DNA of 45,604 nt, from NCBI RefSeq assembly GCF_003334335.1, contig NZ_QOWQ01000036.1. The stretch is one strand, 5' to 3'. Of this stretch, positions 3,534 through 45,604 are shown in pieces; position 1 is the stretch's first letter, and each line of letters opens with the position of its first letter. The translations under genes and the position numbers were made by a program. The DNA comes from Escherichia coli. GTDB taxonomy: Bacteria; Pseudomonadota; Gammaproteobacteria; Enterobacterales; Enterobacteriaceae. Under the pieces are notes generated by a model, which was not told the DNA's origin, did no database searches, and saw only the letters and a program-made list of their open reading frames with translations.

Positions 3534-4799
3534 TTACGGTTTGAAGTCCAATGGCGCGTTTTTGAACACTTCATATACTGCCTGGCTTGGTGGTTTCGGG
3601 ATCTTCGCAAGTTTAGCTGCTGCCAACGCAGCCTGACAAAGTGCGGGATCGCCACCTTCAGGTTTGATATCCAGTAACATACCATCGGGTGCCAGTTTTA
3701 TGCGCAGCGTACAGGTTTTGCCTGCATAGGACGATGCGTCATAGAACTTACTTTCGATAGCAGATTTAATCTGCCCGGCATAGTTATTGATATCGGCCCC
3801 TGATGCGCCATTGTTTTTAGTATTACCACTCCCGGCAGGCGAAGCATTGTTCCCTTTCGCCCCTCCCCCCGTTTTCGGTGCATTCTTACCAGAGCTTAGC
3901 TCACCGAAAATATCATCTGCCTCTGCGGCCGCTTTTGCTGCAGCGGCTTTTTCAGCTGCAGCTTTTGCCGCTGCCGCTTTTTTGTCTGCGGCGGCTTTTT
4001 CTGCCGCTGCTTTCTTATCAGCTGCTGCCTTTTCAGCAGCCGCTTTTTCTGCTGCTTTTTTGTCGGCTGCAGCTTTCTCTGCTGCCGCTTTCTTATCAGC
4101 TGCAGCCTTTTCAGCAGCCGCTTTCTTCTCAGCTTCTGCTTTGGCTTTTTCAGCAGCTTCAGTTGCCGCTTTCTTTCTTGCTTCAGCTGCAGCTGCTTCT
4201 GCCGCTTCCGCTTTCTTCTTCAGTGCCGCAGCGGCTGCCTCGGCTTTTTTCTGCGCTTCGGCTGCGGCTTTGGCGGCTTCTGCTTCTGCTTTTTTCTTTG
4301 CGTCTGCAGCCGCTTTCTTCGCTGCTTCTTCCGCAGCTTTAGCATCTGCTTCGGCCTTCGCTTTAGCATCTGCCGCCGCTTTCGCTGCCGCCTCTTCAGC
4401 TTGCTTCTGCTTTAACTCGGCCTGTTTTGCGGCTTCTTCAGCCTGCTTTTTCTGCTCCTGAGCCGCTAACCGCTCTTTCTCAAGTTGCTTCAGGCGTTCC
4501 TGTTCAGCCGCTTGTTTCTCACGCAGTTCTTCAGCAGCCTGCTGTTCCTTCATCTTGCGCTGTTCATCAGAACGCTTCGCGCTTGATTCCTGGCTTTGCA
4601 TGCGTTTGTACTGCTCAACTACCGCACCTGAATCAACCATGACAGCGTCGATGGACGAACCACCGCCGCCTCCGGCTGAAGCTTCTATATTCTCATCGAA
4701 CGAACTCCAGATCAGCGCCGCAAATAAGATGACATGCAGCACTGCTGAAATAATTATCGCCCGCTTGAGCTTGTCGTTTTGTTCGGTTGCCTTTGACAC
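3534..4799 (-). CDS. tolA: Tol-Pal system protein TolA
   Basis: 421 aa; N-terminal TM helix, long Ala/Lys/Glu-rich central helix, C-terminal domain. Confidence 0.95.
   Translation of the reverse strand: MSKATEQNDKLKRAIIISAVLHVILFAALIWSSFDENIEASAGGGGGSSIDAVMVDSGAVVEQYKRMQSQESSAKRSDEQRKMKEQQAAEELREKQAAEQERLKQLEKERLAAQEQKKQAEEAAKQAELKQKQAEEAAAKAAADAKAKAEADAKAAEEAAKKAAADAKKKAEAEAAKAAAEAQKKAEAAAAALKKKAEAAEAAAAEARKKAATEAAEKAKAEAEKKAAAEKAAADKKAAAEKAAADKKAAEKAAAEKAAADKKAAAEKAAADKKAAAAKAAAEKAAAAKAAAEADDIFGELSSGKNAPKTGGGAKGNNASPAGSGNTKNNGASGADINNYAGQIKSAIESKFYDASSYAGKTCTLRIKLAPDGMLLDIKPEGGDPALCQAALAAAKLAKIPKPPSQAVYEVFKNAPLDFKP
3900..4420. repeat. Low-complexity GCn/AAA-rich coding repeats (TolA domain II)
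   Basis: Reiterated gctgc(c/a)gc...ttt units encoding AAEKAAADKKAAAEK-type repeats; produces spurious ORFs on the opposite strand. Confidence 0.8.
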
Positions 4800-15265: not shown

Positions 15266-15988
15266 ATGGGACACAAGCCCTTATACCGGCAGATTGCCGA
15301 TCGCATTCGTGAACAAATTGCGCGTGGCGAGCTTAAACCTGGCGATGCGTTACCCACTGAATCAGCGCTACAAACAGAGTTTGGCGTCAGCCGGGTTACG
15401 GTGCGTCAGGCTTTGCGCCAGCTAGTCGAGCAGCAGATCCTCGAAAGCATTCAGGGCAGCGGGACTTACGTCAAAGAAGAGCGGGTCAATTACGATATTT
15501 TTCAGTTAACCAGTTTTGATGAAAAACTGTCGGACCGTCACGTCGATACACACAGTGAAGTTCTGATATTCGAAGTGATTCCGGCTGACGATTTTCTTCA
15601 GCAACAGCTACAAATCACCCCGCAGGATCGTGTGTGGCATGTGAAGCGCGTGCGCTATCGCAAGCAAAAGCCAATGGCGCTGGAAGAAACCTGGATGCCG
15701 CTTGCGTTGTTCCCGGATCTCACCTGGCAGGTCATGGAAAATTCGAAATATCACTTTATCGAAGAAGTGAAGAAAATGGTTATCGATCGTAGCGAACAGG
15801 AAATCATTCCTCTGATGCCAACCGAAGAGATGAGCCGTCTGCTTAATATCAGCCAGACAAAGCCGATTCTTGAAAAAGTATCGCGTGGATATTTAGTTGA
15901 TGGTCGGGTGTTTGAATATAGCCGCAACGCTTTTAATACCGATGACTATAAATTTACCCTGATAGCGCAGCGAAAATCATCGCGATAA
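15266..15988 (+). CDS. mngR: GntR/HutC-family transcriptional regulator MngR (FarR)
   Basis: 240 aa; N-terminal GntR-type wHTH (VSRVTVRQAL), UTRA-type C-domain. Confidence 0.92.
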   Translation: MGHKPLYRQIADRIREQIARGELKPGDALPTESALQTEFGVSRVTVRQALRQLVEQQILESIQGSGTYVKEERVNYDIFQLTSFDEKLSDRHVDTHSEVLIFEVIPADDFLQQQLQITPQDRVWHVKRVRYRKQKPMALEETWMPLALFPDLTWQVMENSKYHFIEEVKKMVIDRSEQEIIPLMPTEEMSRLLNISQTKPILEKVSRGYLVDGRVFEYSRNAFNTDDYKFTLIAQRKSSR

Positions 15989-15990
15989 GC

Positions 15991-16016
15991 ACAAAAAAGG
16001 CCATCATACGATGGCC
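15991..16016 (-). terminator. Intrinsic terminator ending the sucABCD transcript (shared palindrome downstream of mngR)
   Basis: Stem ggccatc/gatggcc (15999-16016), loop atac, followed on the minus strand by a U6 tract (plus-strand aaaaaa 15993-15998). Confidence 0.8.
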
Positions 16017-16091
16017 AACCATGTCGAAACCGACAGCCCTTCGCCATTCCTGTAGAGGGAAGCGGCGAGGGCTATTTCTTATTACAGATAT
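15993..16091 (-). ncRNA. sdhX: sucD 3'UTR-derived sRNA (SdhX/RybD-type)
   Basis: ~100-nt 3'UTR between sucD stop and a strong terminator; a 3'UTR sRNA is known at this position in enterobacteria. Exact 5' end not determinable from sequence. Confidence 0.55.
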
Positions 16092-31433: not shown

Positions 31434-32162
31434 ATGACATTTATTAAAGGATTACCCTTAATGTTGTTAACCATCAGCTTGGGTTGCAATGCTGCGGTGC
31501 AACCCGATCGCACACGCATTGTGTTTAACGCCAATGACAAAGCCACCAGCCTGCGTATCGAAAACCAAAGTGACAAACTGCCTTATCTTGCTTATTCCTG
31601 GATAGAAAATGAAAAAGGGGAGAAAAGCGATGCTCTTCTGGTCGCTTTGCCCCCTATTCAACGTCTGGAACCGAAAGCGACATCGCAGGTGCGGGTTGTG
31701 AAACAAGCCTCAACCACACAATTACCTGGCGATCGCGAAACGCTATTTTTCTACAATATGCGCGAAATTCCTCCCGCTCCGGATAAAAGCAGCGACCATG
31801 CGATACTTCAGGTCGCTATTCAAAGTCGTATTAAATTGTTCTGGCGACCGGCTGCATTACGCAAGAAAGCAGGAGAAAAGGTCGAACTGCAGTTACAGGT
31901 CAGCCAGCAGGGCAACCAACTGACACTGAAAAATCCTACCGCGTATTATCTGACCATTGCCTATCTGGGGAGAAATGAAAAAGGCGTTCTCCCAGGCTTC
32001 AAAACCGTGATGGTTGCACCTTTTAGTACGGTCAACACAAACACCGGAAGTTATAGCGGCAGCCAGTTTTATCTCGGTTACATGGATGATTACGGCGCAT
32101 TACGCATGACGACGCTCAACTGCAGCGGACAATGCCGTTTACAAGCAGTGGAGGCGAAATGA
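31434..32162 (+). CDS. ybgP: Periplasmic fimbrial chaperone (PapD-like)
   Basis: Start placed at MTFIKGLPL (242 aa); two-domain immunoglobulin-like chaperone signature. Confidence 0.88.
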
Positions 32163-33220
32163 GTGCTGGCAAGGGATTGTTGCTCGTCATCTGCCTGTTA
32201 TTTCTGCCGTTGAAGTCTGCAATGGCGCTGAACTGCTATTTTGGTACATCTGGTGGCGCAGTAGAAAAATCAGAAGCGATTCAACCGTTTGCTGTACCAG
32301 GCAATGCCAAACCCGGTGATAAGATCTGGGAATCTGACGATATTAAAATTCCCGTCTATTGTGACAACAATACCAACGGCAACTTTGAAAGCGAGCATGT
32401 CTACGCCTGGGTAAACCCCTATCCGGGGGTGCAGGATCGTTATTATCAACTCGGCGTGACATACAACGGTGTCGATTACGATGCCAGTCTGGGAAAAAGT
32501 CGCATCGACACTAACCAGTGTATCGACAGTAAGAACATTGATATTTATACCCCTGAGCAGATCATCGCGATGGGATGGCAGAACAAAATTTGCTCGGGCG
32601 ATCCCGCTAATATTCATATGTCGCGTACCTTTCTCGCTCGCATGCGGTTATACGTCAAAATACGAGAAATGCCGCCGCATGATTATCAAAGTACGCTTAG
32701 CGACTATATCGTCGTGCAATTTGACGGTGCCGGTAGCGTTAACGAAGACCCTACTGCCCAAAACCTGAAATATCATATTACTGGTCTGGAAAACATTCGC
32801 GTGCTGGATTGCAGCGTCAATTTTTCCATTTCACCGGAAACACAGGTGATTGATTTTGGTAAATTTAATTTGCTGGATATACGTCGCCACACAATGTCGA
32901 AAACGTTCAGTATTAAAACGACCAAGAGCCAAAACGATCAATGCACCGACGGATTTAAAGTCAGTTCCTCCTTTTATACCGAAGAAACGTTGGTTGAAGA
33001 AGATAAAGCATTGTTGATTGGTAATGGTCTGAAGCTACGTTTACTGGATGAAAACGCCTCGCCTTATACCTTCAATAAATATGCTGAATACGCCGATTTC
33101 ACCAGTGACATGTTGGTCTACGAAAAAACCTATACGGCTGAACTTTCGTCCATTCCAGGCACCCCCATCGAGGCTGGCCCCTTCGATACAGTGGTGCTTT
33201 TTAAGATTAACTATAACTGA
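32159..33220 (+). CDS. ybgO: Large fimbrial subunit / putative tip adhesin
   Basis: Start at MSAGKGLLL (353 aa), ATGA overlap with ybgP stop; size suggests a two-domain adhesin. Confidence 0.8.
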
Positions 33221-33228
33221 TTTACCAT

Positions 33229-33262
33229 GATGCCCTTTGCCGCCGGAAAGGGCATCTCTTTC
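33229..33262 (+). terminator. Putative intrinsic terminator after the fimbrial operon
   Basis: gatgcccttt-gccgccgg-aaagggcatc hairpin followed by a short T-containing tract. Confidence 0.5.
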
Positions 33263-33371
33263 AGAAAATTGCTGATTTTCCCCTTTTCCTTGATTGCTGT
33301 TATTTTTTCCTGGCCCAGCTTTCTTTATGCTGTATCGATACACCAAAGAGAAAATAATGAGGGAGCGAAGG

Positions 33372-34418
33372 ATGCCAGTTTTGCAGTGGGGAATGTTATG
33401 TGTGCTATCACTTCTCCTTTCTATTGGTTTCCTCGCGGTACATCTCCCGGCGGCGCTATTACTTGGGCCGATGATCGCCGGGATCATCTTTAGTATGCGC
33501 GGAATTACTCTGCAACTTCCCCGCTCTGCTTTTCTCGCCGCCCAGGCCATTCTTGGCTGCATGATTGCGCAAAACCTCACTGGTTCGATTCTCACCACCC
33601 TGGCCGTCAACTGGCCGATCGTGCTTGCAATTTTACTGGTAACGCTGCTTTCCAGCGCCATTGTGGGTTGGTTATTGGTGCGCTATAGCTCATTGCCTGG
33701 AAATACCGGTGCCTGGGGCTCCTCTCCTGGCGGCGCGGCGGCAATGGTCGCTATGGCGCAAGATTACGGCGCAGATATTCGCCTGGTGGCGTTTATGCAA
33801 TATCTGCGAGTGCTGTTCGTCGCGGGGGCCGCTGTTCTGGTCACCCGCATGATGCTGGGCGATAACGCTGAAGCGGTTAACCAGCATATCGTCTGGTTCC
33901 CGCCAGTGAGCATTAATCTCCTGCTTACTATTTTGCTCGCGGTCGTTGCCGGTACAGTGGGATGCCTGCTGCGTCTTCCTTCCGGCACGATGCTCATCCC
34001 GATGCTGGCGGGCGCAGTGCTCCAGTCTGGTCAGCTCATCACCATCGAACTACCGGAATGGCTGCTGGCGATGGCGTATATGGCAATTGGCTGGCGGATT
34101 GGTCTTGGTTTCGATAAACAAATCTTACTGCGGGCACTACGCCCGCTACCGCAAATCCTGCTGTCGATTTTTGCTCTGCTGGCTATTTGTGCGGGTATGG
34201 CGTGGGGGCTGACCCGGTTTATGCACATTGATTTTATGACTGCCTACCTCGCCACCAGCCCCGGCGGGCTTGATACCGTGGCGGTCATCGCCGCAGGGAG
34301 CAATGCCGATATGGCGCTCATTATGGCGATGCAAACCCTACGCCTGTTCAGTATTTTGCTGACAGGGCCTGCCATTGCGCGGTTTATTTCAACCTATGCG
34401 CCGAAGCGGTCGGCCTAG
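33372..34418 (+). CDS. abrB: AbrB-family membrane protein (putative regulator/transporter)
   Basis: ORF track gives 374 aa; start placed at MPVLQWGML (348 aa); polytopic membrane protein. Confidence 0.85.
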
Positions 34419-35206
34419 TGCTGGCAGCCAGGGCACCAGTAAAACGGGCGAGATGACAGCGTGGTTTTCTCAATGATGCTGCCACAACGTTCGCACGGTT
34501 CGCCATCTCGATGAAAAACCTTAAAGCGAAACAGCGCCCCATGATGCTTATTCTCATCCACCTGCCCCCGCGTAGCGTAGGAAAATCGAGGAATCTCCAG
34601 TAACGCGTGTGCGAGTGCATCCAGTTGCGCCGCATTGAGATCTTTCGCTTTATGATTTCCAGTCAACCCAACCTGCCAGAGGATCTCCACCCGCAAATAA
34701 TTGCCAAGCCCAGCCAGAAACGCCTGATCGAGCAGTAATCCAGCAAACTGACGGTTACGAAAGCGCGGCGACAATAATCGTTCTTTCACCACCTCCGGCG
34801 TCAGATTCGGATCCAGCACATCGGGACCAACGCGTTGTAAAAACGGATGCGTGGTCAGTTGTTCCGGGGTCAACATCTCAATATCCGAGGCGCTATAAAG
34901 CAGAATGGTTTTGTCAGCCGTTTGCAGTTTTACCCGCAATACTCGCGTGGTCTGCGGCTCTTCGCCGGTATCAACCACGCGCCAGACGCCGTAAAGCTGA
35001 TTATGGCTGTAGAGCGTTAAGTCGTTGGAAAAATGAGTTAACAACGCCTTACCACGCGTTTCCACATGGGTAACGTGTTGACCGATAAGTTGTGATTGAT
35101 AAGGTTTTAACTGCGGGAAGGCAAACCAGACATCAGTTAGTGGTTTGCCTTTGATCGCCGCCTCCAGGTTATCCGCTGCACGGCGGATCTCCGGGCCTTC
35201 AGGCAT
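34415..35206 (-). CDS. nei: Endonuclease VIII (DNA glycosylase/AP lyase)
   Basis: 263 aa; N-terminal MPEGPEI catalytic Pro, C-terminal zinc finger (CxxC...CxxC). Confidence 0.95.
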
Positions 35207-35241
35207 GGTGATATCCTTTTTTCATTCTTTATTAATCGGGG

Positions 35242-35976
35242 TTATGCTGCGACAACAATCCCCTTTTCGGCAAATGCAGAGCGTAGTCGGCGGGCGAACG
35301 CCAGTGCGTGCTCGCCGTCGCCATGCAGGCAGACCGTTTGCGCCGCGACCGTTGCCCATTCGCCGGTGATACTTTTGACTCTGCCGTGTTGCACCATCTC
35401 CAGCGTTTGCGCCAGCGCCTGTTCTTCGTTTTCAATCAACGCGCCTGACTGGCTTCGCGGCACCAGCGAGCCGTCAGCCTGATAACCGCGATCGGCAAAC
35501 ACTTCCTCGCGCGTTGTCAGACCATATTGCTTGCCTGCACGAATCAGCTCGCTTCCCGCCAGCCCGACGAGAATCAATGCTGGATCGCAAGCGTATACCG
35601 CTCTGGCGATGGCGTCTGCCAGTTGTGCTTCTTTCGCCGCCTGGTTGTACAACATGCCGTGCGGTTTGACATGACGCATTACGCCGCCTTGCGCACGGGC
35701 AATCGTTGCCAGCGCGCCAATTTGATACAGCGTCTGGGCGTAAACGGTTTCTGGCGGCAGCTGCATGGCGCTGCGACCAAAATTTTCCCTGTCGGGAAAA
35801 CTCGGGTGAGCGCCAATCGCGACACCATTTTTTATTGCTTCACGCACGCAAGCCTGCATGATTTGCGCATCGCCTGCATGAAATCCACAGGCAATATTGG
35901 CAGAGGAAACCAGCGTTAATAGCTCTGCGTCGCTGGCGCAGCCTTCGCCCAGATCGGCGTTCAGGTCAATTTTCAT
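35242..35976 (-). CDS. pxpA: 5-oxoprolinase subunit A (LamB/YcsF family)
   Basis: 244 aa, last gene of ybgI-pxpBCA cluster. Confidence 0.9.
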
Positions 35977-36898
35977 TGTGCAGCCGCCACGCTAATTGTT
36001 CAAAATAACGTTGCTGATCTTGCCGTGCTTTTAGTGCCTCTTCCAGTGAACACTGGACAAAATGAATCGGCTGACCGAGCGGAATTTGCGCCAGATGGTA
36101 CATATCAGCCTCAATGATACAGGCAATACGCGGGTAACCACCGGTGGTCTGTGCGTCGTTCATCAACACAATCGGCTGCCCGTTATGTGGCACCTGCACC
36201 ACGCCCGGTAACAAACCGTGAGATAACAGTTCGCGATCGGTGGTGCGTTTTAAAATTTGCCCCTGTAAGCGATAGCCCATGCGGTTACTTTGCGAGCTAA
36301 GCTGCCAGGGCGAACGCCAGAATGCATCCTGCGAGGCGCGATCGAACTCATGATATTCCGGCCCCGGCAAGGCGCGAATGCGGTTGCCCCACAGCAGCTG
36401 TTTAACGCCCTGCGCTTCCATAGAATCACGCTTCGATTTGCCAATCGGGAGTCGGTCACCATCCTTCAGTAAACGGCCTTCCAGCCCGCCAATCCCCACT
36501 TTGAGATCGGTGCTGCATGAGCCCATTACCGGCGGAACATCAATACCACCCGCGACCGCCAGATAACTGCGCATCCCGTGCTGCGGGCGTTTAAGCGTTA
36601 AACGCTGGCCTGCTTTCATCGGCAATCGCCAGCCGGTCCAGACGGCATTATCATCCAGCCGCGCTTCGCAACCGGCACCCGTCAGAGCAAACCACCCATC
36701 AGTTTCGAACTCAACAGTTAACTGACCGAGCGTGATCTCCAGCGCGGGGGCATTGGCGTCATTACCCACCAGTAGGTTAGCAATGCGTAACGCGGGCATA
36801 TCCAGTGCGCCGCAGTGGCTGATACCCGACTGGCGAAAACCGTGACGACCGCCATCCTGCACAGTGGTATACATGCCCGCACGAATAATCTTCAGCAT
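35966..36898 (-). CDS. pxpC: 5-oxoprolinase subunit C (allophanate hydrolase subunit 2-like)
   Basis: 310 aa; overlaps pxpA start by 11 nt. Confidence 0.9.
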
Positions 36899-37548
36899 AC
36901 TCCCTCCTTCTGCGGTACAAAGCGCACGCTGTCTCCCGGACGTAATAAGATGGGTTCGTCACGCGCCGGATCAAACAGGCTGAGTGAGGTATGACCAATC
37001 AACTGCCAGCCACCCGGCGTTGCCAGCGGATAAACACCAGTCTGCGGCCCGCCGATCCCGACAGAACCTGCCGGAACGAGTAAGCGCGGTTCAGCGCGCC
37101 GTGGCGTGTGTAGTTGTTCCGGCAAACTCCCGAGATACGGGAAGCCCGGTTGAAAACCTAAAAACCAGACCACGTATTCCACGGAGGAGTGCAATTCAAC
37201 AACCTGTTTTTCGCTCAACCCGCAATGCGCCGCGACCACCGCCAAATCCGGTCCGCCTGCACCACCGTAAACCACCGGAATTTCAATAAAGCGAGACTCC
37301 GGCTCCAGCGCCTCGCTCTCCTCCCACCAGCGTTGCAAACGCTCTATGGCATCCAGCGCCAGCGACTCAGGATTACGCAAAATCACCGTGATATTGTTCA
37401 TGCCGGGAATGGCTTCAACCACATTCGGCATATCCACCAGACGCTGCGCCAGTCGCCAGATCCGTTTCTGGCTAGCCAGCGTCACCGGCGGTTCCAGTTC
37501 CAGCACTACCGCCGTTTCACCTATCAGATAACAACGCGCTCGTTGCAC
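36892..37548 (-). CDS. pxpB: 5-oxoprolinase subunit B (allophanate hydrolase subunit 1-like)
   Basis: 218 aa; overlaps pxpC start. Confidence 0.9.
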
Positions 37549-37570: not shown

Positions 37571-38314
37571 TTATGCAGGATTAGGAATATCAATAAAGGT
37601 CACATCAAGATCGGTATTTTCATTCAGCCACTCGCTCAATGCGCGAATACCACCACGTTCAGTGGCATGGTGACCTGCAGCATAAAAATGCAATCCCTGC
37701 TCGCGGGCTGAATGAATGGTCTGTTCAGAAACTTCGCCAGTAATAAAAGCATCCACGCCAAAACGCGCGGCGCTATCGATAAAACTTTGCCCGCCGCCCG
37801 TGCACCAGGCGACGCGCTGGACCACCTCAGGTCCGGTATCGCCACACCATAACGGCTTACGTCCCAGACGCGCTTCAATCCAGGAAGCCAGCTCCAGTCC
37901 CGGCACAGGCATGGTCAGTTCGCCCCACGGCACCAACGGCTCAATTTCGCCCATGACCGTGATCCCCAGTAACGCCGCCAGCTGTGCGTTATTGCCCAGC
38001 TCAGGATGTGCGTCAAGCGGCAAATGCCAGCCATACAGGTTGATATCATTCGCCAGCAACGTTTTTAAACGGTTACGCTTCATTCCGCGAATGACCGGAG
38101 ACTCTCCTTTCCAGAAGTAGCCATGATGCACAATGACCGCATCCGCGCCCAGACGCACTGCCTCATCGAGCAAAGCCTGGCTGGCGGTGACACCGGTAAC
38201 AATTTTTTGCACCGTCTCTTTGCCTTCCACCTGCAAACCATTCGGCGCGTAATCACTAATCGCCGCGCTGTTCAGTTTTTCGTTAATCAGTTGTTCCAGT
38301 TCGGTGTTTTTCAT
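37571..38314 (-). CDS. ybgI: Nif3-family metal-binding protein (GTP cyclohydrolase 1 type 2 homolog)
   Basis: 247 aa, His-rich metal-binding motifs typical of Nif3/YbgI. Confidence 0.9.
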   Translation of the reverse strand: MKNTELEQLINEKLNSAAISDYAPNGLQVEGKETVQKIVTGVTASQALLDEAVRLGADAVIVHHGYFWKGESPVIRGMKRNRLKTLLANDINLYGWHLPLDAHPELGNNAQLAALLGITVMGEIEPLVPWGELTMPVPGLELASWIEARLGRKPLWCGDTGPEVVQRVAWCTGGGQSFIDSAARFGVDAFITGEVSEQTIHSAREQGLHFYAAGHHATERGGIRALSEWLNENTDLDVTFIDIPNPA

Positions 38315-42287: not shown

Positions 42288-43049
42288 CTATTCAAACGTG
42301 AAATCAATAAGTTCATCAGGGACATCGCAAACAATATGAAGACGGATTTCTTCTCTGCCGTGACTCTTTTCACTCATTGCGTAACTGTCATGCTCTGGAT
42401 TATTTAATTCTTTCAGCGGAAATTTTTCCTCAAAGGCTTTATTTAGCCGCCCCTGGTTTCCTTTTACCGCGAATAAATAATCACCTCCCTGTTTTTGTAT
42501 CTTCTCTGCAATATCTTTCTGGCAACCCATCGCATCAGTTGTGATGATTTTTCCTTTAATATCCAGCATGTTAAGAAGTTCAGGGATAGCTGTGATCTCA
42601 TTGGATTTCTTATCCGTCTTGATCTGCCCGATGACCAGACTGTGCATTGTTGAGAACGCACTAATGACATGAATCGCTCCCCTGCGGCGACTCTTGTCAT
42701 AAGAGTGCCGGAGCGTTTTTCCATCAATTGCAATGACGTCTTTATCATTTGATGAATGGCAATCACGCATCCAGTTAATAAAGCACTCGTGAAATTTTGC
42801 AGGACTGATACAGGATACAACTCTGGCAATAGTATCGTGAACAGGAATACCATTTTCAAAATCACCATATTGCTTCAAGAAATCGAGATGTGTTTCCCCG
42901 AAATCCTCTATATCTTCCCAACTTTCTGCACCAGAAATAACGGCAAAAATAGTCAATAGTAGGATGCCTGACAATTTATGCTCTACTTTCCAGGCTTATC
43001 TGTAATCGGGAATAATAGAAATATGTTCCATCAATTTTTTAAGTTCCAT
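42288..43049 (-). pseudogene. ybfD: H-repeat-associated transposase remnant, copy 1 (ybfD-like), in-frame TAA at codon 18 and 3'-truncated
   Basis: [17 protein letters not shown]-stop(42996-42998)[10 protein letters not shown]... then 228 codons; ends ...[12 protein letters not shown] where full-length ORF-H continues W-K-G-L. Confidence 0.75.
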
Positions 43050-43174
43050 TTGTTCACCTTATTTATGTAAGGAGTATTTGATCATGTATAAGCTATGAAA
43101 AACAGCTTTAGGTAATAAGGAATATCTCAATTTTTAAACATAAAATGCGAATTATTTAGTACAAAAAAGTAGCG

Positions 43175-43429
43175 TTACGTGATCTTTCCCTGGGATACAA
43201 CTCTGGCAATGGTATCGTGAACAGGAATACCATTTTCAAAATCACCATATTGCTTCAAAAAATCGAGATGTGTTTCCCCGAAATCCTCTATATCTTCCCA
43301 ACCTTCTGCACCAGAAATAACGGCACAAATAGTCAACAGTAGAATATCTGACAATTTATGCACCACTTTCCAGGCTTGTCTGTAATCGGGTGTAATAGAA
43401 ATATGTTCCATCAATTTTTTAAGTTCCAT
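43175..43429 (-). pseudogene. H-repeat transposase N-terminal fragment, copy 2 (84 codons)
   Basis: [22 protein letters not shown]...IARVVS then out-of-family QGKIT-stop created by the repeat junction. Confidence 0.8.
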
Positions 43430-43554
43430 TTGTTCACCTTATTTATGTAAGGAGTATTTGATCATGTATAAGCTATGAAAAACAGCTTTAGGTAATAAGG
43501 AATATCTCAATTTTTAAACATAAAATGCGAATTATTTAGTACAAAAAAGTAGCG

Positions 43555-43809
43555 TTACGTGATCTTTCCCTGGGATACAACTCTGGCAATGGTATCGTGA
43601 ACAGGAATACCATTTTCAAAATCACCATATTGCTTCAAAAAATCGAGATGTGTTTCCCCAAAATCCTCTATATCTTCCCAACCTTCTGCACCAGAAATAA
43701 CGGCACAAATAGTCAACAGTAGAATATCCGATAATTTATGTTCCACTTTCCAGGTTTGTCTGTAATCGGGGATAATAGAAATATGTTCCATCAATTTTTT
43801 AAGTTCCAT
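43555..43809 (-). pseudogene. H-repeat transposase N-terminal fragment, copy 3 (84 codons)
   Basis: Near-identical to copy 2 (I13, T19, E23 variants); same junction-derived C-terminus. Confidence 0.8.
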
Positions 43810-43951
43810 TTTGTTCTCCTTAATTAGGTAAGGAGTATTTGATCATGTATAAGCAATAAAAAACAGCTTCAGGTAATAAGGAATATCTCAATTTTTAAAC
43901 ATAAAATGCGAATTATTTAGTGCAAAAAGTGAACTTTTGATGATCTTTCCC

Positions 43952-44315
43952 TGGCCGTTGACTCGATTGCCGTAGCTCGAACGCAAGCACTCTTATCATT
44001 CAATGCCATATTGTTCAAAATATTAAAAACATTATCTTCGCATTTTTTGCAAATTTATATTTGCCCGAGTATAAATGCTCCGATATCTCTACGGATATAA
44101 TTTTTGTCAGTGCAGAATTCAATTGCCAATCTAACAGCGTCTTGCCCCCCTCTTAACTGTAATACTCTGGCAGATGAAATCCTTTTCAAGGAATTGCGAT
44201 CATCAAGTAAGCGAAATAATTCATCATCATTTAGTTTCTTACATTTATTATATAAACCATACTCTTTACTTGCCTTTCTTTTCTGGTATGTATTTGACAT
44301 TGCAGGAACCTCCAT
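43952..44315 (-). pseudogene. yibA-like HEAT-repeat (PBS-lyase type) gene remnant
   Basis: MSNTYQKRKASKEYGLYN...AFILGQI then TAA (44055-44057); homology continues in frame (ICKKCEDNVFNILNNMALNDKSACVRATAIESTA) to ~43953 where the H-rpt terminus begins. Confidence 0.7.
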
Positions 44316-44509
44316 AAAGGCTATCTTTTTCTATCGTTTGACTGTCTGGAGTCCTCCACCTACTCTGCCATCAGCGCACACGATGTTTGATTATCCTTAC
44401 ATACTTATTTTCCGTGGCCAAAATTCAGAATTCTCCCATCATTTTTGCCTATTTCTATAATAAAAACCCCACCAGCAATTTGGTCTGAGTGAATGGTACC
44501 TTCAACAAC

Positions 44510-44752
44510 TCAACTTGTTGTTAACTCAGTGATTTCGTATGGTTTTTCTTCTTCTGCGGCATCCTGTCCATAACGATTCTTAACATATATCTCAGCTAAT
44601 TCCAATGCTATAGCTTTATTTTTAACCAAATTTCTAACGGTATATTTACCTTCACTTTCATACTTGCGCATTATTTTAATATTATTATTACACTGCGCCC
44701 ATGTGTTGTATGTAAAAACAAACAAAGATACAATGACACAGTTCCTAAACAA
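44510..44752 (-). CDS. Small secreted protein, candidate Rhs immunity protein
   Basis: 80-aa ORF 6 nt downstream of the Rhs tip stop; N-terminal signal-peptide-like segment (MFRNCVIVSLFVFTYNTWA); AT-rich like the tip. Confidence 0.5.
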   Translation of the reverse strand: MFRNCVIVSLFVFTYNTWAQCNNNIKIMRKYESEGKYTVRNLVKNKAIALELAEIYVKNRYGQDAAEEEKPYEITELTTS

Positions 44753-44758
44753 TATTTT

Positions 44759-45604
44759 TTACATATTACCATGAACTCTGCAGACATTAGGTAATCCTTT
44801 TCTGTTTGTTATTTCCTTCCCGTGGTTATCTATTGCTTTAAAATTACCACTGGGCGTACCTAAATAAAATGACTTGATATTGTTATCTTTACTTTTAACT
44901 ATTTTCTCATCTTTACCTGAAAATATTTCGTCCCAATATTCTCCATGACTATCTGCACCATGAGTATGATAAGCTGATACTTTCTCAGTACCATTAGGGC
45001 AAGGGCTATTGAATGGATATGATCCTTTTCTTTCTCCTCGGTTAGGTGCTGTTGAGAAATATCTGCCACTATTATCCTTACATATTAAACCAGCGAACTC
45101 TTTATCTTCGCAAATAGATTGGCTATTTATTTTATTTAAGGCGCCATATGCGGTGCTATCTATAGAATCAAATTTATCTGGACCTATCATAGCGGATAGT
45201 GTGCCGCAAAGACCATTAGTACATGCCCCCGATTTTGCATCCTCCCACATAGATAAACCCAGGGGGTCGATGTCTGATATCGGATTCAATTGATATCCAT
45301 ACAGGTTCCATCCCCCCTTCAGTCCAATCGGATCCTGAGTGATATATCGCCCCTGCAGCGGGTCATAATAGCGGTGGCGGTTGTAATACAGGCCGGACTC
45401 CTCATCATACTGCTGCCCCGGCAGCCGGATAAGCTGCTGCAGCTGATGCGGGTTCTCTTCATTCAGCAGGTTGCCCCATTCATCATATTCTGCGCACCAC
45501 GCTGTTGCCCCTTCCGTGCTGATGAGCGCCAGCGGCAGGCCGCGATGGTCGCAGTGGTACAGGTGGATTTTTCGCGCCGGCGTGTACACCGGGTCCATCT
45601 GGTT
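44759..45604 (-). CDS. Rhs protein C-terminal part: end of conserved core plus ~164-aa variable tip (putative toxin); 5' end outside window
   Basis: Core-end signature ...[39 protein letters not shown]; abrupt GC-rich to AT-rich switch at ~45254; Cys/His-rich tip; reading frame runs to the window edge. Confidence 0.85.

Follow-up and report, generated by a model that had tools for sequence, protein, structure and literature searches.

When two genes that face each other end on the same few base pairs, is the arrangement a regulatory device, or simply what is left once the DNA between them has been lost? This question is raised by abrB and nei of Escherichia coli, whose stop codons share four base pairs in the stretch of 45,604 nucleotides analysed here (the window; contig NZ_QOWQ01000036.1 of assembly GCF_003334335.1). 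A first-pass annotation of the same DNA had drawn attention to the overlap, arguing that it leaves no space for a terminator, that the two mRNAs must have complementary 3' ends, and that they may interfere with each other. We think that nei and abrB form, in all likelihood, a passive and minimal tail-to-tail overlap and not a dedicated device.

The geometry of the junction is simple. The plus strand reads ...TCG GCC TAG at 34410-34418, which is the end of the abrB open reading frame. The abrB stop codon TAG occupies 34416-34418 (+), the nei stop codon TAG is read on the opposite strand from 34417-34415 (CTA on the plus strand), and both lie inside a shared palindromic CTAG (34415-34418) whose outer bases double as third positions of the final sense codons, CAC (His) in nei and GCC (Ala) in abrB. 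In the program-made list of open reading frames, the two frames span 33294..34418 on the plus strand and 34415..35206 on the minus strand, and both are open up to these stops. The abrB coding sequence (33372-34418, +, with its ATG at 33372) encodes 348 amino acids and is identified by this list, by the family TIGR03082 ('membrane protein AbrB duplication', E 3.6e-86) and by RefSeq (b0715). The nei coding sequence (34415-35206, -) encodes the 263 amino acids of endonuclease VIII, as indicated by the same list, by RefSeq (b0714) and by an end-to-end match to the endonuclease VIII equivalog NF007763, with 505 bits for a cut-off of 252. The names, strands and coordinates first given to both genes were therefore correct, and so was the placing of the stop overlap at 34415-34418, on which sequence, open reading frames and RefSeq agree.

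The label carried by AbrB deserves a brief comment. RefSeq calls the product an 'AbrB family transcriptional regulator', and the MG1655 annotation a 'putative regulator'; the protein is strongly hydrophobic, with five hydrophobic stretches on the Kyte-Doolittle scale (several of two-helix length), and matches a membrane-protein family. The word 'regulator' seems to be inherited from older naming and not to describe the biochemistry of the protein. A literature search combining abrB and aidB returned nothing relevant to the function of E. coli AbrB.

The junction is not a peculiarity of one strain. The stretch was found in 5422 of 5426 complete E. coli genomes, and the window is 100% identical to K-12 MG1655 over 1900 nt covering abrB and nei; the RefSeq annotation of MG1655 (nei 745935..746726, abrB complement 746723..747769) contains the identical 4-bp overlap. 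The same overlap is annotated in five divergent E. coli genomes (95-98% identical), and CTAG is kept in all six further E. coli genomes that we read at the junction, despite synonymous changes nearby. A 32-nt exact-word query at the junction retrieved 3034 of the 5426 genomes, which is a lower bound since the remainder carry such nearby synonymous changes. Over most of its length (43.2 kb) the window is 99.87% identical to MG1655; divergence is concentrated at ~42300-45604, the transposase-like, repeated end with the H-repeat and ybfL-ybfD, so that the DNA comes from a strain closely related to K-12 and not from MG1655 itself. The overlap of nei and abrB is thus real and ordinary, and it is already present in the reference annotation and in the literature.

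That it is ordinary follows from the genetic code. On the plus strand, a stop codon has T as its first base and A or G as its last; as a reverse complement, it has T or C first and A last, and by the codon table convergent stop codons cannot share 1, 2, 3 or 5 nt. Because the sharing of 1, 2 or 3 nt is impossible, 4 nt is the first legal convergent overlap, and the only legal tetramers are CTAG, CTAA, TTAG and TTAA. Lillo & Krakauer 2007 (PMC2174442) already named these four tetramers and reported the jump of the length distribution at 4 nt; four is the modal length of convergent overlaps in their work and in that of Huvet & Stumpf 2014 (PMC4161906). The former counted 58 convergent overlaps in E. 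coli and the latter 75 convergent overlapping pairs, so that nei-abrB, with the 4-nt stop/stop geometry and a genuine coding gene on each strand, has many counterparts and calls for no improbable event.

The immediate surroundings of the pair are compact as well. On the minus strand, nei is the final gene of a co-directional ybgI-pxpB-pxpC-pxpA-nei run, in which mapping to the MG1655 annotation places pxpA at 35242-35976, pxpC at 35966-36898, pxpB at 36892-37548 and ybgI at 37571-38314. Work by Gifford and Wallace from 2000 is said to be the source for the operon status of the genes upstream of nei. Co-directional overlaps occur between pxpC and pxpA (11 nt, 35966-35976), between pxpB and pxpC (7 nt, 36892-36898) and, on the other side of the junction, between ybgP and ybgO (4 nt, 32159-32162), which indicates that genes are tightly packed throughout this region. 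At the opposite end of nei, codons 1-30 (35117-35206) have a four-fold-site diversity of 0.21, for a mean of 0.43, among 17 Escherichia and Citrobacter sequences; this low diversity suggests a constraint, at the level of RNA or of translation initiation, at the pxpA-nei junction.

How the overlap came about can be approached by comparing relatives. A scan with Nei, with one genome per species, gave 80 loci, and in 17 of them abrB converges on nei and directly adjoins it. The overlap is of 4 nt in 13 of these 17 loci (all Escherichia species, the Citrobacter freundii complex and some C. amalonaticus), and the four others have spacers of +6 (Salmonella arizonae), +25 (C. sedlakii), +54 (S. diarizonae) and +75 nt (C. 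amalonaticus S646). In three further Citrobacter loci (L017, L032 and L033 3793-4740), an insert of ~930 nt separates nei from abrB. The two proteins hardly notice these changes: Nei has 263 codons in all 80 relatives, its zinc-finger CxxC stopping two residues short of the stop codon, and AbrB ends throughout in the motif YAPK(R/Q)xx*, the tail being of the same length in most of the spaced relatives, whose stops lie 6-946 nt apart, and 1-5 residues longer in a few. Both proteins are of normal length in all 13 overlap loci. Since the AbrB tail and the length of Nei are kept, the overlap reflects the loss of spacer DNA and not the extension of a protein.

The same observations dispose of the idea that one of the two stops is not a real protein end, and hence that there is no true overlap. 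This reading, which we find hardly credible, could only appeal to the last 9 residues of AbrB, which lie beyond the TIGR03082 match (it ends at residue 339); the constant length of Nei, with its CxxC so close to the stop, the AbrB tail retained in relatives with widely separated stops, and the fact that both frames are open to the end all speak against it. We have consequently rejected an annotation artefact on the conservation of Nei length and AbrB tail.

Each of the four legal tetramers is represented among the 13 loci with the overlap: CTAG four times, and CTAA, TTAG and TTAA three times each. The last sense codons of both genes are always NNY in these loci, as the geometry demands, whereas outside them the last Nei codon varies freely (K, H, R, Q, T, M and others). 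In neighbour-joining trees the -4 state falls in two or three clades, and these trees do not decide between a single loss of the spacer followed by regain and two or three independent losses. On a bolder reading, to which we give a low probability, the -4 state would have arisen independently in Escherichia and in Citrobacter, and would be an evolutionary sink for convergent genes whose spacer has been lost. The counterpoint to a passive overlap should be mentioned: the -4 state is present across the whole genus Escherichia and in a Citrobacter clade, a distribution that could also reflect selection for the overlap.

We turn to what lies beside nei when abrB does not. No abrB was found next to nei in 60 of the 80 loci, and in most of these gltA converges on nei. 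A hairpin followed by a T-tract is present within 130 nt of the nei stop in 40 of the 60 loci without adjacent abrB, versus 1 of the 17 with it (Fisher p about 9e-6, to be read with the reservation that the loci are phylogenetically related and not independent). Many of the sites between nei and gltA are A-tract/GC-hairpin/T-tract elements, bidirectional in appearance. Among the loci with adjacent abrB, only that of Citrobacter sp. Cu233 (L019 ~3782-3806) has a terminator-like site at the junction: the hairpin GCCAGCACTAAGCTGGC followed by TGTTTTGG spans the shared CTAA, with the two stop codons in its loop. More generally, the DNA between nei and gltA is a variable insertion slot, which contains abrB alone in Salmonella and many Citrobacter, and abrB with ybgOPQD in Escherichia. 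In C. youngae ATCC 29220 (L012 3790-3797) it is an AraC-like gene that converges on nei, with a gap of 2 nt between the stops; tight packing against nei is thus not specific to abrB.

We then have to ask whether E. coli has kept some terminator of its own at this junction. A standard promoter and terminator scan of positions 33000-35600 found no canonical intrinsic terminator past the abrB stop or past the nei stop; over these 2.6 kb it returned 4 sites, for 3.9 expected from shuffles. A relaxed search for hairpins followed by T residues gave only weak sites on the abrB strand and one reasonable hairpin on the nei strand, and Rfam gave no match at E <= 1 on either strand of 33000-35600. Neither abrB nor nei, therefore, has an intrinsic terminator, uni- or bidirectional, in E. 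coli. The reasonable hairpin (GCGGGC-GTAGT-GCCCGC, 34130-34146, -) has a poor, interrupted T tail and is the sole hairpin-plus-T site downstream of nei. Among 11 relatives compared, it is intact only in the three genomes named E. coli (K-12, E69 and SCPM); in E. whittamii, Escherichia sp. MOD1 and E. albertii it is weakened, and in Citrobacter it is absent. On this distribution we ruled it out as a selected element.

The original argument that there is no space for a terminator is true of the intergenic space, but it is not a general rule, as terminators can sit inside the coding sequence of the partner. Lillo & Krakauer 2007 (PMC2174442) found such an arrangement for ~20% of the genes in E. 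coli convergent overlaps, and in the more recent ExcludonFinder survey (PMC12288877) 146 of 165 convergent excludons had predicted overlapping terminators. One could accordingly imagine that terminators embedded in the partner end both transcripts early, leaving a complementarity of a few tens of nucleotides that would be inconsequential. How common embedded terminators are in these two studies speaks for this, as do a small 5-bp hairpin (GCCGA-CCGCT-TCGGC) immediately past the nei stop and, 42 nt past the abrB stop, a weak hairpin with GTGGTTTT (dG -9). We nevertheless consider early termination very improbable here, for neither site has the hairpin plus T-run of the standard definition, and the published transcript data, including a read-through centred 310 nt past nei, do not fit it. 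For nei and abrB, the first conclusion that there is no terminator therefore holds, there being no canonical intrinsic terminator past either stop.

These data come from Adams et al. 2021 (PMC7815308). Their Supplementary file 1 contains no Term-seq 3' end in MG1655 745900-747099 in any of three growth conditions, and their Supplementary file 2 lists a Rho termination region at MG1655 747036 (+), described as 'antisense abrB', with a Rho score of 2.87 (p 7.6e-5). In windows of 800 nt upstream and downstream of this point, reads numbered 68 and 30 in untreated cells and 75 and 95 in the presence of bicyclomycin; the counts are low and stem from one condition of one data set. Position 747036 maps to ~34105 of the window, 310 nt past the nei stop and inside antisense abrB. 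Taken together with this mapping, the published region delimits a read-through from the nei operon at 34105-34414 (-), which covers the last ~100 codons of abrB in antisense. A sliding profile of 78 nt along the nei RNA shows a C-rich, G-poor patch from +170 to +260 (34155-34245, -), where C/G reaches 1.6. Just upstream of the published termination region, this patch is a candidate Rho loading region, with the proviso that a C/G profile is not specific for rut-like stretches by composition alone.

For the other strand, Adams et al. 2021 (PMC7815308) entered no Rho region. The same kind of profile along the abrB RNA shows two C-rich, G-poor patches inside antisense nei (34484-34743, +), from +66 to +156 at C/G 1.9 and from +222 to +325 at C/G 2.0-2.25, and these could be loading regions for Rho on abrB transcripts, if base composition is any guide.

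The window holds a second tight convergent junction, at 15988-15991, between mngR (15266-15988, +) and the small RNA gene sdhX (15991-16091, -), the annotated 3' end of SdhX and the mngR stop codon lying 2 nt apart. A Rho region antisense to mngR is reported there too by Adams et al. 2021 (PMC7815308), at MG1655 765604 (+), with a Rho score of 2.86. A read-through from sucD-sdhX into mngR that meets this Rho region is the same pattern as that of nei and abrB, at the next convergent junction.

We can now return to the claim that the two mRNAs have complementary 3' ends. It is borne out, in the first place by logic, because each mRNA must include its own stop codon, and also by the published Rho region past the nei stop and by the excludon map of Sanmartin et al. 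2025 (ExcludonFinder, PMC12288877), whose Table 1 lists nei-abrB as one of 165 convergent excludons in MG1655. The complementarity should extend over tens of nucleotides at the minimum and probably over hundreds. We would not, in turn, make too much of the excludon listing. A pair enters the map when its transcript boundaries overlap in at least 50% of 58 RNA-seq samples (141 pairs of the map are Nanopore-confirmed), and since the coding sequences of nei and abrB already overlap, this is near-automatic once both genes are expressed. The listing confirms the overlap but says little about its extent or its effect.

Is the overlap, then, used by the cell? One may suppose a functional excludon, in which the terminator-less overlap was selected because it makes transcription of the nei operon and of abrB mutually exclusive, by head-on collision of polymerases, by RNase III cleavage of the 3' duplex, or by both. 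If this were true, base excision repair of oxidative damage would be coupled to whatever AbrB does. Several points go in this direction: the pair is in the published E. coli excludome (PMC12288877); excludon pairs, as a class, are reported to show higher synteny and less co-expression in single cells (Sanmartin et al. 2025, PMC12288877); the overlap is maintained in all of Escherichia; and neither gene has an intrinsic terminator. Against these, the p19-based validation of double-stranded RNA could not be applied to E. coli excludons of the convergent type (PMC12288877), read counts at the locus are low, the pairing is missing in most Enterobacteriaceae and gives way to spacers in Salmonella and several Citrobacter, and in C. 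youngae a different gene abuts nei just as tightly. Our literature search found no pair-specific result on mutual exclusion of nei and abrB.

The sequences of the two tails bear directly on this idea. In the 17 sequences compared, all in the overlap state, four-fold-site diversity over the last 60 codons of nei is 0.41-0.52, versus a gene mean of 0.43; the final 60 codons of abrB have 0.35-0.40, versus a gene mean of 0.46 and values of 0.31-0.57 elsewhere in the gene. There is, in other words, no clear extra constraint on four-fold sites in the overlapping tails, that of abrB being marginally lowered but within the range of the gene. The absence of extra constraint counts against a functional excludon, and so does the confinement of the overlap to Escherichia and part of Citrobacter; neither supports a selected regulatory role. 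We regard mutual exclusion as unlikely. The stronger version, a switch kept terminator-less in Escherichia that sets abrB, or the normally silent ybgDQPO-abrB run, against ybgI-pxpBCA-nei, seems to us quite improbable. Interference of some kind between nei and abrB, whether by polymerase collision or along the RNase III/excludon model, is plausible in principle.

The passive overlap that we prefer can be told as a short history. In the ancestral type of context, nei would have converged on gltA, usually over a short spacer with an A-tract/hairpin/T-tract terminator. In the group formed by Escherichia, Salmonella and Citrobacter, abrB would have been inserted between nei and this terminator, leaving nei without a terminator of its own, and in Escherichia the ybgOPQD fimbrial genes would also have come to lie between nei and gltA. 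The spacer between nei and abrB would then have shrunk to the smallest legal state, with stops offset by one base, and this -4 state would be held because a change destroying either stop would lengthen a protein, while drift at third positions could cycle the junction among CTAG, CTAA, TTAG and TTAA. As for transcription, the upstream genes ybgI, pxpB, pxpC and pxpA would supply the polymerases that read through nei, and the published bicyclomycin data show that they run ~300 nt into antisense abrB before Rho ends transcription. Transcription of abrB presumably enters antisense nei in its turn, where Rho may stop it at the C-rich patches lying 66-325 nt past the abrB stop, or collision with oncoming polymerases may do so. 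Any interference, by collision or by RNase III cutting of the duplex, would be a by-product, and probably a small one given the low reads in the 3'-end and Rho data set used here (Adams et al. 2021).

Taken alone, the overlap of nei and abrB matters little: it is in the reference annotation, its class has been described since the 2000s, and the pair is in the excludon map. Its interest is rather that of a worked example, in which the insertion of a gene strips a neighbour of its terminator, the spacer collapses, and Rho cleans up the read-through. Should reciprocal interference prove true after all, it would provide one validated case among the 165 convergent excludons listed for E. coli, most of which are unvalidated.

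It is useful, finally, to set the junction beside the systems that it resembles. One is the nei/gltA terminator hairpin of other Enterobacteriaceae, which concerns the same gene and the same place directly past its stop; it is found 20-115 nt past nei in genomes that include Klebsiella, Enterobacter, Kluyvera and Lelliottia, and is missing in E. coli. With read-through ended by Rho (Adams et al. 2021, PMC7815308), the nei strand shares a bicyclomycin-sensitive region preceded by a patch where C exceeds G; its region has few reads and no discrete 3' end mapped to it. Convergent excludons, a concept from Listeria and Staphylococcus aureus (PMC12288877), are likewise convergent neighbours with overlapping transcription, but their hallmarks are mutual exclusion and RNase III processing, whereas for nei-abrB it is the overlap that is documented; moreover, they overlap in their 3' UTRs, and nei and abrB begin to do so inside their coding sequences. 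Bidirectional termination driven by collision (Ju et al. 2019; Wang et al., preprint 10.1101/2022.10.23.513370) also involves convergent genes neither of which has a canonical terminator, and because neither nei nor abrB has an intrinsic one, head-on collisions must occur whenever both are transcribed. In that system, however, an intergenic element encoding a hairpin fixes the site of collision, whereas nei-abrB has no intergenic DNA and no conserved hairpin, and the signal on the nei strand is Rho-dependent (Adams et al. 2021, PMC7815308). Among convergent overlaps of 4 nt, by contrast, nei-abrB differs in nothing and is a textbook member, with its CTAG and stops offset by one base; what it adds to this class is the occurrence of all four tetramers at one orthologous junction, together with the NNY limit that the overlap imposes on the last codons of both genes.
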